Source: a virus
Taxonomy: Duplodnaviria > Heunggongvirae > Uroviricota > Caudoviricetes
Direction: 5' to 3' (one strand)
Virus record (IMG/VR): IMGVR_UViG_2711768020_000006
DNA: 43,597 nucleotides
Positions 34,831 to 38,219 of the stretch are shown piece by piece. Position 1 is the first letter of the stretch, and the number at the start of each line of letters is the position of its first letter. Below the pieces are notes generated by a model that saw only the letters and a program-made list of their open reading frames with translations, did not search any database and was not told where the DNA came from. A program made the translations under genes and the position numbers.

Positions 34831-36885
34831 ATGTCAGACTCCAAGTGGAAAATGCTCTCCGCCATGCCCGGAGAGTTTTCAGTCAAGGTTGCCGGTGGCA
34901 CGGTGGCATTTATTGAAAGCCCTTTCCGCCCTTCGGGTAATAAAGGGGGGATCACCTTCGCAGACTGCGTGATCCGCTTCAGCACGAAAGAGCCATTATG
35001 GGTAATGCCGGTATCCGGTAATCCCAGTGCAGAAATCACCAGTTCAGGCGTGACTGGCATCATTCCAATCACATCTGACGTGGCCGGAACGCTCACGCCC
35101 TCCGACTGGAATGCACCGGATAACGCCGGGCCTTCCGGTAGCACGAATGGCAGCAGTTCAGAGCCGGAATATTACTTTGTTGTCATTCTCGCGGGTCAGT
35201 CAAATGGCATGGCCTACGGCGAGGGGCTGCCGTTACCGGATTCGTTTGACCGCCCGGACCCACGCATTAAGCAACTGGCACGCCGCAGTACGGTAACGCC
35301 CAACGGTACGTCGTGTACATACAACGACATCATTCCGGCAGACCACTGCCTGCATGATGTTCAGGATATGAGCGGGATAAACCACCCGAAAGCTGATCTG
35401 GCAAAAGGCCAGTACGGGACTGTCGGTCAGGGGTTGCATATTGCCAAAAAACTGCTTCCCTATATCCCACAGAATGCCGGGATACTTCTGGTGCCCTGTT
35501 GTCGTGGCGGGTCAGCATTCACCACTGGAGCCGACGGCTCATTCAGTGAGGCCAGCGGTGCTTCCGCTGATTCTTCACGCTGGGGGGCCGGTAAACCTCT
35601 GTATCAGGACCTGGTAAGCCGCACCAAAGTCGCGCTGGCGAAAAACCCGAAAAACAAACTTCTGGCTGTGGTCTGGATGCAGGGAGAGGCAGACCTTGCC
35701 TCAGGAAGCCAGCAGCATAATAGTTTATTCACGGCCATGGTTCAGCAGTTCAGAACTGACCTGGCTCCGCTTGCTGCGCAGTGCGTGAGTGGAAATGCCA
35801 CCACGGTGCCGTGGATTTGCGGTGATACCACGTATTACTGGAAAAACGCTGGCACCGATAAATATGAGGCAGTATACGGTGGCTACAAAGGCAAGGAAGC
35901 ACAGAAAATTTTCTTTGTACCGTTCCTGACGGATGAGAATGGACAGAGCACGCCAACGAATGCTCCGGCGGAAGACCCGGATATTGTGGCTGTCGGGTAT
36001 TACGGTGCAGCATCCCGAACCCAGGGCAGTTTTGTTTCGACACAGCGTGACAGCCATTTCAGCTCATGGGCACGCAGGGGCGTCATTTCAGACCGTCTGG
36101 CCTCAGCTATTATGCTCCATGCAGGGCGCACGGCTGAACTGATGCGTGGGCAGACCGTGACACCACCGGATGAGAAGCCGTCACCTGATACACCATCAAA
36201 ACCGTCCACGCCACCCGCAGACACCACGACGATGAGTACGCTATTTGCTTACCGGGCATCTGAGTCTGAAGGACGGTTGACACCACAGGGTTGGGCTGCC
36301 GGAGGTGGCAAGGCTCAAATCGTGGATGATGCCGGAGCCAGCGGGGGTAAGGCAATGAAACTGACCAAGGAAACAGGAAGAGCCCCCTGGTACCTTGAGC
36401 ATGATGCTGGTAATGGTGCGGACCTGCTGGGTAAAGGTGGTCTTGTCAGTTGTCGTTTTAAACTCGATGGCGCGCTTACGGCTAATCAGTACGCACTGGC
36501 GCTGTACTGGCCGGTTTCTGCCCTGCCGCAAGGGGTTACTCTGGAAGGAAATGCCGGTCATAACCTGCTGGCATCGTTCTACGTACAGAGCGATGCCACA
36601 GACCTTAACGTGATGTATCACAAAGGAAACACGGCGCAGAACACGAAGCTGGGGTCATTCGGCGCATTTAATAACGAATGGCATACGCTGGGCTTCCGTT
36701 TTGCCGGTAACAACAGTATTGAGGTGACGCCGGTCATTGATGGTAAGGACGGGACACCATTCATGCTGTCGCAGTCTCCGGTCGGCACGTTTACGGCAGA
36801 CAAGTTGCGCGTGACCGATATCACTAAAAATGCGACTTACCCGGTACTGATTGACAGTATCGTGGTGGAAGTGAATAACGCGTAA
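34831..36885 (+). CDS. Cargo protein: SASA/SGNH-type carbohydrate esterase domain plus a C-terminal beta-sandwich (lectin/LamG-like) domain
   Basis: 684 aa; GQSNG motif (ILAGQSNGMAYG) and VVWMQGEADL motif; Pro/Ser/Thr-rich linker; no obvious signal peptide. Confidence 0.55.
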   Translation: MSDSKWKMLSAMPGEFSVKVAGGTVAFIESPFRPSGNKGGITFADCVIRFSTKEPLWVMPVSGNPSAEITSSGVTGIIPITSDVAGTLTPSDWNAPDNAGPSGSTNGSSSEPEYYFVVILAGQSNGMAYGEGLPLPDSFDRPDPRIKQLARRSTVTPNGTSCTYNDIIPADHCLHDVQDMSGINHPKADLAKGQYGTVGQGLHIAKKLLPYIPQNAGILLVPCCRGGSAFTTGADGSFSEASGASADSSRWGAGKPLYQDLVSRTKVALAKNPKNKLLAVVWMQGEADLASGSQQHNSLFTAMVQQFRTDLAPLAAQCVSGNATTVPWICGDTTYYWKNAGTDKYEAVYGGYKGKEAQKIFFVPFLTDENGQSTPTNAPAEDPDIVAVGYYGAASRTQGSFVSTQRDSHFSSWARRGVISDRLASAIMLHAGRTAELMRGQTVTPPDEKPSPDTPSKPSTPPADTTTMSTLFAYRASESEGRLTPQGWAAGGGKAQIVDDAGASGGKAMKLTKETGRAPWYLEHDAGNGADLLGKGGLVSCRFKLDGALTANQYALALYWPVSALPQGVTLEGNAGHNLLASFYVQSDATDLNVMYHKGNTAQNTKLGSFGAFNNEWHTLGFRFAGNNSIEVTPVIDGKDGTPFMLSQSPVGTFTADKLRVTDITKNATYPVLIDSIVVEVNNA

Positions 36886-37029
36886 GCAGGATAAAAAAAT
36901 GCCGCCGGTAAGGGAAAACAAGAAACCGGCGGCAAAAAGATCGTTATATCCAAAGCAAAAAATGCAGTGCACCTTTTTACCTAACAGATATTACCGGTGT
37001 CAACACCATGTCAATAATTGGGAGGGATA

Positions 37030-37212
37030 ATGACATTTTTACAGCTTATTTTATTGTATTTCTGCACGGCAGTATGTGCGTTATATCTGGTGAGTGGTGG
37101 TTATAAGGCCATCAGAAATTATGTTCGCCGCAAAATTGAGGACGCAGCAGCTGAAAAACTCAGTAAAACAGCGCAGGTAACTCCGCTCCCAAAAGACCCG
37201 ACCCAGCCCTGA
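37030..37212 (+). CDS. Small membrane protein (one N-terminal transmembrane helix, basic tail)
   Basis: 60 aa; GGAGG Shine-Dalgarno; tracker start at 37018 (TTG) trimmed. Confidence 0.4.
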   Translation: MTFLQLILLYFCTAVCALYLVSGGYKAIRNYVRRKIEDAAAEKLSKTAQVTPLPKDPTQP

Positions 37213-37247
37213 TTGCAGGGCTTTATTCCCGCATAAGGAGGATATAC

Positions 37248-37502
37248 ATGCCAGAAATTAAAGGCACCGTCACTGAAGACCTGGTAAAACAGGCACTGTA
37301 TTCCGGTGAAGTAAATAAGTTGCTGAAAGCGCAGGTCCGCAAGGATTTTGAGGCACAAATCGACACTTACGTTGATGAAGTGCTGGCAAAACTTATTGGG
37401 CCAGCAGTTGCGGCCAGTGATGCTGATAATGAGCCGAAAACCGACGCGCAGCCAGAGCAACCAGACCCGGCTCAGCCCGGAACTGACAGTACCATGATGT
37501 AA
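37248..37502 (+). CDS. Small helical protein with an acidic Pro-rich C-terminal tail
   Basis: 84 aa with a strong AAGGAGG Shine-Dalgarno; preceded by a hairpin plus T-run (37205-37229). Confidence 0.45.
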   Translation: MPEIKGTVTEDLVKQALYSGEVNKLLKAQVRKDFEAQIDTYVDEVLAKLIGPAVAASDADNEPKTDAQPEQPDPAQPGTDSTMM

Positions 37503-37669
37503 CAATACAAACCGGTGGTGTCCTCTGCCGGTTTGACACTAATGAAAACATCTTTGCCGCTATCCAGCCATATGTAATCGCTGGATAGTATTTCGTATTC
37601 AGAAATATAGCTGCTTATGGAGCAGTCAATCCTGCTTCCCCATCCGGGCAGGCAAATGAACCGGTATCA

Positions 37670-37963
37670 TTAGTCCGATTCACGCTTTTGTAGAATCGTT
37701 CCCAGAATGCTATACAGCTCATTAGCCTGTTGCTCCATCATTGAGACGGAGGCTATACGGTGCAAAGTGATTTCAGGAGGTGGCACACCTCCATCTTCTT
37801 GCTGTGGAGGAAAAACATAAGATTTAATAAAAAAGTTGAAGCATATGAACTCTCCCGCACTCGAACTGTATTTGCAGGCATCTGAATAATCGGAAAAATA
37901 ATCATTATAGATTTCCGCATTTTCAATCATTTTTCGATTTCTCGTCGTTACATGATTGTCCAT
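37670..37963 (-). CDS. Hypothetical protein, AT-rich, divergent from com-mom
   Basis: 97-aa ORF with AGAGG Shine-Dalgarno; visibly lower GC than the surrounding phage DNA. Confidence 0.45.
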   Translation of the reverse strand: MDNHVTTRNRKMIENAEIYNDYFSDYSDACKYSSSAGEFICFNFFIKSYVFPPQQEDGGVPPPEITLHRIASVSMMEQQANELYSILGTILQKRESD

Positions 37964-38148
37964 AGCAGCCTCTTACGCTGGCAATTAACCAATTGACTTC
38001 TATAAATTAGTTGATTTGTTTGCTTTGCGGTATTCAAATGTACAATCATTCAGCACTTATGCGTTACAGCACCGTTTAAAATTAGTGATCAAACTCATAA
38101 ATTTTCGCTAATGACATTTCGTGTTATTTGTTGTATCAATTAAATAAA

Positions 38149-38175
38149 TCAAATCGATCGTTTTTGTCGATCGAT
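38149..38175. promoter_or_regulatory. GATC-containing inverted repeat (AATCGATCG-n7-CGATCGATT) upstream of com-mom; candidate methylation-sensitive regulatory site
   Basis: Palindrome and two GATC sites seen directly. Confidence 0.4.
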
Positions 38176-38219
38176 TGAGTGATAAAGATATCAACAACAA
38201 AGCAGGAGGTTATGCGGCC

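Follow-up and report, generated by a model that had tools for sequence, protein, structure and literature searches.

DUF1378 and DUF826 genes follow a NanS-p-type esterase gene in the gin-com interval of a Mu-like prophage, beside a separate small-gene cassette upstream of the mom control region

In most Shiga-toxin (Stx) phages, genes of the uncharacterised families DUF1378 and DUF826 lie between the esterase gene nanS-p and the holin gene. Here we report the analysis of three small open reading frames (ORF1, ORF2 and ORF3) in the gin-com interval of the IMG/VR virus record IMGVR_UViG_2711768020_000006 (43,597 nucleotides, hereafter the window). The window represents an entire Mu-like prophage: the repressor and transposase genes are on the left, and the tail genes lie on the right together with gin, com and mom. 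We establish the family membership and coding constraint of ORF1 and ORF2, the boundaries of the block to which they belong, and the invariant linkage of this pair to an esterase gene in two unrelated phage backbones. What is new is the occurrence of these copies of known families in another phage backbone, and the assignment of ORF3 to a small unnamed family. The explanation that we favour, and to which we give an even chance of being right, is that ORF1 and ORF2 represent the DUF1378/DUF826 pair of a mobile esterase block, and that ORF3 is a separate cassette.

The only paper that names these two families mentions their ORFs, located between nanS-p and S, only as "proteins of unknown function", and reports that nanS-p expression rises by 1-2.4 logs upon mitomycin C treatment (PMC10462455). 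The lambdoid block is part of the Q-dependent late operon. A second related arrangement is known from the E2348/69 prophages, where the SASA esterase genes are immediately followed by minus-strand genes for the Hfq-dependent small RNAs (sRNAs) PasA and PasC (PMC8550237, Table S6), and an "esterase-PasA-holin-lysozyme" arrangement has been described in a preprint (10.64898/2026.05.13.724894). No paper describing NanS-p in Mu-like phages was found in the literature searched. In the window, the interval between the esterase and the end of ORF2 has the same three families, order and spacing as the nanS-p to S interval of the Stx/lambdoid phages 933W and VT2-Sakai, with a spacer of ~145-170 bp after the esterase gene and a gap of 23-45 bp within the pair. 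In VT2-Sakai and PhiR12_4, the three families occur in this order between stx (or Q) and the holin gene S. The DUF1378 and DUF826 proteins of the window are 51-52% and 36-45% identical to the Stx/lambdoid copies, respectively. The features of the block are as follows, with the evidence for each in brackets, where dN/dS is the ratio of nonsynonymous (dN) to synonymous (dS) substitution rates.

34831-36885, plus strand: putative NanS-p-type esterase of 684 amino acids (aa) with SASA and C-terminal DUF6645 domains, the anchor gene of the ORF1-ORF2 block (Pfam, identity, dN/dS)
36893-37003, minus strand: candidate sRNA gene (promoter, body and terminator between the esterase stop codon and ORF1)
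37030-37212, plus strand: ORF1, DUF1378 family protein of 60 aa (Pfam PF07125, PHROG 494, hydropathy, dN/dS)
37205-37240, plus strand: inter-cistronic RNA structure (7-bp hairpin over the ORF1 stop codon and a weaker stem on the ORF2 Shine-Dalgarno sequence)
37248-37502, plus strand: ORF2, acidic DUF826 family protein of 84 aa (Pfam PF05696, PHROG 311, dN/dS, alignment)
37508-37535, plus strand: GC hairpin closing the esterase-DUF1378-DUF826 block (-16.7 kcal/mol, z = -4.05)

The three ORFs of the initial annotation (37030-37212, 37248-37502 and 37670-37963) proved real and exactly as described there, and each behaves as a coding sequence when compared with diverged copies. The stretch is 100% identical in 14 Escherichia coli genomes, where RefSeq annotates the same four genes. 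Searches of the locus against phage genomes by megablast and blastn returned only two records, both of them Mu-like phages inserted in Stx phages, and searches of the PDB with the three protein sequences gave no matches.

Judged by sequence profiles, ORF1 and ORF2 are members of the known uncharacterised families DUF1378 and DUF826. ORF1 matches Pfam DUF1378 (PF07125) over model positions 1-58 of 59 with 109.4 bits (gathering cut-off 25, E = 9e-32), and PHROG 494 with E = 1e-32. It is preceded by a GGGAGG Shine-Dalgarno sequence and encodes a basic protein (isoelectric point, pI, 9.3), whose single hydrophobic helix, noted at the outset, is confirmed by Kyte-Doolittle hydropathy, with a 19-residue maximum of 2.27 at residues 3-21. 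This N-terminal transmembrane helix is followed by a basic helix (KAIRNYVRRK), placing the positive flank on its C-terminal side; the predicted topology is N-out, C-in, and ORF1 would be a single-pass protein of the inner membrane. The Mu-like and Stx-phage copies of DUF1378 have 25 invariant residues in common, some of them polar or aromatic and inside the helix, where Y10, C12, Y19, S22, G23, G24 and Y25 are conserved. A profile search of genome contigs with the DUF1378 alignment confirmed nothing.

ORF2 matches Pfam DUF826 (PF05696) over model positions 1-58 of 75 with 58.7 bits (gathering cut-off 25, E = 6e-16), and PHROG 311 over its full length with E = 5e-28. Its acidic character and strong Shine-Dalgarno sequence, both remarked on initially, hold up: the pI is 4.24, with 16 Asp/Glu against 8 Lys/Arg residues, and AAGGAGG lies 7 nt upstream of the start codon. 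In the alignment, DUF826 proteins are conserved over a helical N-terminal region of ~57 aa and at the C-terminal Met-Met, with an acidic, proline-rich tail that varies; ORF2 would be an acidic cytoplasmic protein. Comparison with diverged copies gave dN/dS values of 0.14-0.30 for ORF1 and 0.085-0.16 for ORF2, so that the two genes are under purifying selection (0.085-0.30) in copies near synonymous saturation (dS 0.25-0.96). A 128-aa antisense ORF (37119-37505, minus strand) was rejected, since the substitution pattern fits the plus-strand frames.

The junction of the two genes carries an RNA structure that the initial annotation had described as a hairpin plus a T-run. The hairpin is there (37205-37222, 7 bp, -12.1 kcal/mol, z = -3.2) and spans the ORF1 stop codon; the T-run amounts to no more than UUUAUU, and the terminator scan did not call it. 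With this weak U-tract and a downstream gene that is always co-conserved, a terminator was rejected. A weaker stem, in which UAUUCCC pairs with the ORF2 Shine-Dalgarno sequence, sequesters it beside the ORF1 stop codon, which suggests coupled translation rather than termination; ORF1 and ORF2 are probably made from one mRNA in this coupled manner. The Mu-like variants keep the hairpin, one of them with another stem sequence, and most lambdoid variants lack it.

The esterase gene upstream encodes a SASA domain (51 bits, E = 1.5e-13) followed by DUF6645 (226 bits, E = 7e-68), an architecture that indicates a phage sialate O-acetylesterase of the NanS-p type with putative 9-O-acetyl sialate esterase activity. 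It is itself conserved (dN/dS 0.10-0.17) and is 54-66% identical to the NanS-p proteins of Stx phages from residue ~94 onward. Over its N-terminal ~95-110 aa it bears no relation to the DUF1737 domain found in lambdoid NanS-p (933W, PMC10462455), and the first 110 aa gave no Pfam match, DUF1737 included. Because the similarity to lambdoid NanS-p begins at residue ~94, the shared block begins inside the esterase gene. The recombination joint would thus lie within this gene, after the N-terminal domain, and the pair would form the 3' half of a mobile block of ~2.7 kb composed of the NanS-p-type esterase, a minus-strand sRNA-like gene, DUF1378, DUF826 and the closing hairpin. The usual site of this block would be the lambdoid/Stx late operon just before the holin gene, from which it would have been moved into a Mu-like prophage, between gin and com.

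Several side observations concern the esterase. A ~100-aa domain (window positions 34831-35160, residues 1-110) takes the place of the lambdoid DUF1737. A Salmonella P2/Mu-type esterase encoded beside tail-fibre genes aligns from its own residue ~10, near its own N-terminus, and a PHROG scan of the window esterase gave weak matches to tail-protein families; the esterase of myovirus prophages might be tail-associated. One locus (L075, IMGVR_UViG_2617270951_000022) has gin and esterase genes 99% identical to those of the window joined to Sakai-type DUF1378/DUF826 genes and a holin gene, and represents either a Mu-like/lambdoid recombinant through the shared esterase or an assembly chimera.

To describe the linkage of the pair, the neighbours of DUF1378 were scored in a census of 80 IMG/VR loci encoding a relative of this family. 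DUF826 follows DUF1378 on the same strand in all 80 loci at a distance of 23-45 bp, and an esterase gene lies about 145-170 bp upstream of DUF1378 in each of the 78 assessable loci, the other two being cut by a contig end. Downstream of DUF826, 53 of the 80 loci are lambdoid and continue with pinholin and lysozyme genes. The other 27, the window among them, are Mu-like and have no holin or endolysin gene nearby; where the contig is long enough, com follows and then either mom or a C5-methyltransferase-like ORF. In the phage genome collection the esterase is present in 347 records and DUF1378 in 309, and the E2348/69 prophages encode the esterase without the DUF1378/DUF826 pair. As the esterase is found without the pair and the pair never without the esterase, the dependence is one-way, with the pair needing the esterase context. 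The presence of the trio in two unrelated backbones, lambdoid/Stx and Mu-like, implies that the pair goes with the esterase cassette. Judged from these gene neighbourhoods, the pair would be ordinary prophage cargo that belongs to this cassette and not to a lysis, toxin-antitoxin or abortive-infection module.

The lambdoid majority of the census brings in a different explanation, according to which the two proteins are lysis accessories, such as timing modulators of the pinholin or of a signal-anchor-release endolysin, that are carried with the lambdoid lysis cassette and merely retained in the Mu-like prophage. The pair stands directly upstream of the pinholin gene in the 53 lambdoid loci, the DUF826 stop codon of VT2-Sakai is 2 nt from the annotated S ORF, and a small membrane protein with a soluble partner in a late operon with mitomycin C-induced nanS-p would suit such a role. 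We nevertheless consider it quite unlikely. The 27 Mu-like loci have the pair beside com-mom, and their distance from any holin gene together with strong constraint (dN/dS 0.085-0.30 across dS values up to ~0.96) argues against a pure lysis-accessory function; moreover, cassettes of the E2348/69 type run from the esterase into the holin gene with no pair between, and neither ORF1 nor ORF2 matched a holin or antiholin family in Pfam or PHROG.

The initial annotation had proposed instead a toxin-antitoxin, abortive-infection or exclusion module, in which ORF1 would be a small membrane toxin or superinfection-exclusion protein, with ORF2 as the partner that neutralises it. The architecture is compatible with this proposal, in that the operon, at a cargo position, has the gene for a small membrane protein with a single helix ahead of that for a small acidic protein, and the conserved polar and aromatic residues of the ORF1 helix suggest specific membrane interactions. 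The gin gene of phage Mu is expressed in lysogens, and the search for terminator-like sites between gin and the esterase gene found none, so read-through expression of the block in the lysogen is possible. The comparative evidence points the other way. No toxin, antitoxin or defence family of NCBIfam or Pfam was matched by ORF1 or ORF2, and in PADLOC there was no match to ORF1 or ORF3 and only one at chance level (12.9 bits) to ORF2. The PHROG categories gave no guidance on function. An autonomous selfish or defence module usually moves alone, whereas the pair never occurs without the esterase gene. In about two thirds of the loci it occupies a Q-dependent late operon before the holin gene, where expression comes once lysis is committed; this placement, together with the mitomycin C induction of nanS-p, is the wrong expression phase for a module that protects the lysogen. 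We regard the proposal as unsupported and improbable.

The spacer between the esterase gene and ORF1 contains a minus-strand unit with the anatomy of an sRNA gene, namely a TTGACA box (37003->36998), an 18-nt spacer, TAAAAA (36979->36974), a body of ~75 nt and a terminator formed by a 10-bp GC hairpin (36934->36900) and U7 (36899->36893) that abuts the esterase stop codon. The hairpin has a folding energy of -20 kcal/mol (z = -4.5); it is followed by a U-run on the minus strand only, the plus strand having A7 before it. Each of the 27 distinct spacer variants has the same anatomy: TTGACx, a distance of exactly 18 nt, TAAAAA (exact in 20 and nearly so in the others), a body of 72-103 nt, a GC hairpin with 12 different stem sequences among the variants, and U5-8; past the hairpin, the plus strand is never U-rich.

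This unit resembles PasC and PasA in its position right after the SASA esterase gene, in its "> < >" orientation, in its promoter and intrinsic terminator and in its size of ~75 nt, and in E2348/69 we verified that the PasC terminator with its U7 likewise abuts the esterase stop codon. It differs from PasC, PasA and Esr41 in having no sequence similarity at family threshold. BLAST gave no significant match of the unit to PasA or PasC; the Rfam model of Esr41 matched it over the full length at 22.2 bits, far below the gathering score of 102, and no bona fide Esr41 at that threshold was found in 13 related loci. Esr41, unlike the spacer unit, is encoded on SpLE1 (PMC5286369). Since position, orientation and anatomy agree and sequence similarity is lacking, we report the unit as a candidate relative of PasA and PasC, not as a member of their family. 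With it, the arrangement known from PasA/PasC is seen in Mu-like phages and in many further types of cassette. As a separate observation, some lambdoid cassettes have two minus-strand units, the spacer unit and, after DUF826, PasC or PasA: PasC (98.7% identical) or PasA lies between DUF826 and the holin gene in loci L052/L072 (7697-7774) and L049/L060.

One could therefore ask whether the functional element of the region is mainly RNA, with the spacer sRNA gene under selection, possibly acting antisense on ORF1, and ORF1 and ORF2 contributing little. The promoter-body-terminator anatomy preserved in 27/27 variants with 12 different stems speaks for this explanation, as do the published Hfq-dependent PasC and PasA in the same place and orientation and the retention of the sRNA in cassettes that lack the pair. 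Set against these are the protein-level constraint on ORF1 and ORF2, their strong Shine-Dalgarno sequences and their conserved residues. The constraint implies that the proteins themselves are functional, so that the sRNA reading adds to the esterase-block explanation and does not replace it; as a replacement we think it very unlikely.

The closing hairpin of the block is the last ~32 bp common to the Mu-like variants and forms the shared left flank of a variable slot. In other slot types TTTTATTTT comes after it, whereas in the window the cassette junction has other sequence in place of the U-tract. ORF3 lies inside this slot, whose features and flanks are listed below.

37536-38110, no strand assigned: variable cargo slot upstream of the mom control region (slot clustering, ORF content, pairwise BLAST boundaries)
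37670-37963, minus strand: ORF3, acidic (pI 4.7) AT-rich gene product of 97 aa (family profile, structure model)
38111-38220, plus strand: com leader and conserved mom control region, where the cargo ends on the right (GATC sites at 38156-38159 and 38169-38172)
38221-39111, plus strand: com-mom operon, with com at 38221-38420 and mom extending to 39111 (Pfam Mom, 261 bits; RefSeq annotation)

Among Mu-like prophages the slot, ~576 bp long here, has at least five unrelated content types: the ORF3 type, a type with a 64-aa CxxC...CxxC ORF (LC727881), and three types with other small ORFs. The mom control region on its right is 87-92% identical across all Mu-like slot types and aligns with the AAATCGATCG...GATCGATT region of Mu, GATC cluster included. 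In the window, a Com zinc-ribbon ORF overlaps a Mom-family gene and is preceded by this GATC-rich control region; com-mom is native Mu-type backbone, not cargo. The initial annotation had ORF3 sharing its promoter region with com-mom. The genes are indeed divergent and 257 bp apart, but only the 110 bp on the com side are conserved mom-control DNA, while the 147 bp on the ORF3 side are variable cassette; given the conserved Mu-like right flank, the DNA upstream of ORF3 is part of the cassette and not of the mom promoter.

The reverse orientation, length and AT-richness reported for ORF3 were all borne out. Its GC content is 39.8% against 53.7% for the prophage, and only 2.8% of 294-bp windows are equally AT-rich. 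The frame has remained intact while the surrounding slot DNA has 24 gap columns, and dN/dS is 0.40 with an excess of synonymous changes (Fisher p = 0.007). RefSeq gives a shorter form of 86 aa; the 97-aa start is better supported, owing to the AAGAGG 5 nt upstream and to a 79%-identical homologue that has no internal Met. The separate acquisition suggested by the initial annotation agrees with this deviating composition and with the at least five alternative slot contents, and the data support ORF3 as an independently acquired cassette in a swap-prone slot. The three genes do not form one unit: ORF1 and ORF2 are part of the esterase block, and ORF3 stands apart from it.

Searched alone, ORF3 gave only E. 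coli and Shigella copies in a word-indexed search of 5.8 billion proteins, and only close copies from the same two groups when 1.84 billion representatives were searched exhaustively with HMMER. Its family, ~100-aa Enterobacteriaceae prophage proteins with 16 invariant positions and members in Salmonella, Klebsiella, Raoultella, Lelliottia, Enterobacter and Citrobacter, came to light through a profile for which a weak phage match served as seed. The full length of ORF3 can be aligned with the equally sized proteins URC09907.1 (phage vB_EcoS-733R5), Klebsiella P0080 and Salmonella P0089; its identity is 55-57% to the Salmonella protein and only 24-29% to most family members. No relative of the family was found in Pfam, PHROG or the PDB. 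A first model by AlphaFold 2 (AF2) from three sequences was unusable (predicted local distance difference test score, pLDDT, 59); in the structure model of ORF3 the predicted fold consists of three long beta-strands and a C-terminal helix, and a Foldseek search against viral models gave nothing at E <= 0.001.

The relatives of ORF3 occupy accessory positions in prophages, the Salmonella gene being near SASA/DUF6645 esterase and tail-fibre genes. In other genera they head small operons with non-conserved partners of 81, 126 or 128 aa; no trace of these partners was found in the window, where ORF3 has no downstream partner. The most likely role of ORF3 is an accessory ("moron") function expressed in the lysogen. 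The alternative that ORF3 regulates the neighbouring com-mom DNA-modification operon or acts as its partner draws on the divergent arrangement and the 257-bp AT-rich intergenic region. We find it highly improbable, considering that com-mom operates without ORF3 in Mu, D108 and many Mu-like prophages, that unrelated slot alternatives stand beside the same conserved 110-bp mom control region, and that the relatives in Klebsiella and Salmonella prophages have no Mom-family gene called within ~6 kb.

Further observations concern the slot and its surroundings. The alternative slot of loci L022/L023/L031 contains a 78-aa ORF (…RNFATAMWIAMQIL…), which has a 46-aa relative beside the Salmonella esterase (L096, 7087-7227; …RDFPEAMWVAMQTI), and slot genes seem to be drawn from a shared pool of small accessory genes tied to esterase and tail regions. 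RefSeq annotates com as frameshifted in the identical copy of E. coli JE86-ST05 (NZ_AP022815); the window has an intact 66-aa Com-like ORF (38221-38420). To the right of mom are a C-terminal fragment of an IS66 transposase (39330-39788), a "prophage tail fibre N-terminal" ORF (39842-40870), a DUF4376 ORF (40821-41444) and, on the minus strand at 41624-43339, a gene for an IpaH-type effector with leucine-rich repeats and a NEL E3-ligase domain. What lies at 39330-43339 is left over from another prophage, together with a type III effector, and the NZ_AP022815 copy of the prophage is flanked instead by ybfB/rhsC.

How the pair would act can be proposed only tentatively. In a reading that we hold possible though doubtful, DUF826 docks on the basic juxtamembrane helix of DUF1378 and the pair serves the esterase; the charge complementarity of the basic ORF1 and acidic ORF2 proteins was counted in its favour. 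The pair might hold, position or release the leaderless esterase at the membrane, or couple it to sialic-acid uptake, and would be neither cell-killing nor lysis-timing. A broader version, which we rate as quite improbable, sees in the esterase, antisense sRNA, DUF1378 and DUF826 a self-contained mobile "sialoglycan-foraging" module, in which the pair would position or release the signal-peptide-less NanS-p without full lysis, in the style of holin-like secretion, and a putative Hfq-dependent sRNA would tie the module to host regulation. If this were true, the Mu-like copy, away from the lysis cassette, would be a revealing natural experiment.

Several points weigh against the esterase-block explanation and its extensions. 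Neither homology nor experiment ties DUF1378 or DUF826 to esterase function. About 11% of the esterase-bearing phage records and both E2348/69 loci are without the pair, which means that the esterase does not need it. The tight linkage could be purely historical, the genes being ~150 bp apart. In loci L028-L030 the esterase is 100% identical, DUF1378 is 87-88% identical and the spacer differs, and L075 is likewise mosaic; such mosaicism inside the block implies that its parts are not strictly co-evolving. For ORF3, the fold matches are weak and generic.

None of these findings overturns current understanding. Their useful outputs are the strict linkage of the pair and the esterase across two phage types, a conserved sRNA-like gene and a variable slot upstream of mom. 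The trio is under selection in a Mu-like prophage far from lysis genes, an argument for tying the pair to the esterase and not to lysis, and this prophage offers a clean genetic background for testing the pair. The slot upstream of the mom promoter is a hotspot of small accessory genes that can be mined for new prophage functions.

Compared with phage Mu, the window has a gin-like invertase gene, com, mom (its Mom is 79% identical to that of Mu) and the GATC-rich mom control region in common. It differs in the interval between gin and com, which is 94 bp in Mu and holds ~3.5 kb of inserted cargo in the window, in agreement with the cargo position assigned initially. In the sister lineage LC727881 the esterase block is retained, mom gives way to a C5-methyltransferase-like ORF, and the reverse ORF is a different one. 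This 350-aa C5 cytosine-methyltransferase-like ORF after com (L005, LC727881, 6011-7262) is also present in L023, L032 and L034, and the com-controlled slot is apparently able to hold different DNA-modification enzymes. The likeness to the Stx/lambdoid phages extends to the A-run and GC hairpin after the esterase stop codon. In contrast to their location between Q or stx and the holin gene, the block of the window lies between gin and com of a Mu-like myovirus prophage; it does not run into lysis genes but ends in a hairpin, and it has a strong inter-cistronic hairpin between DUF1378 and DUF826.

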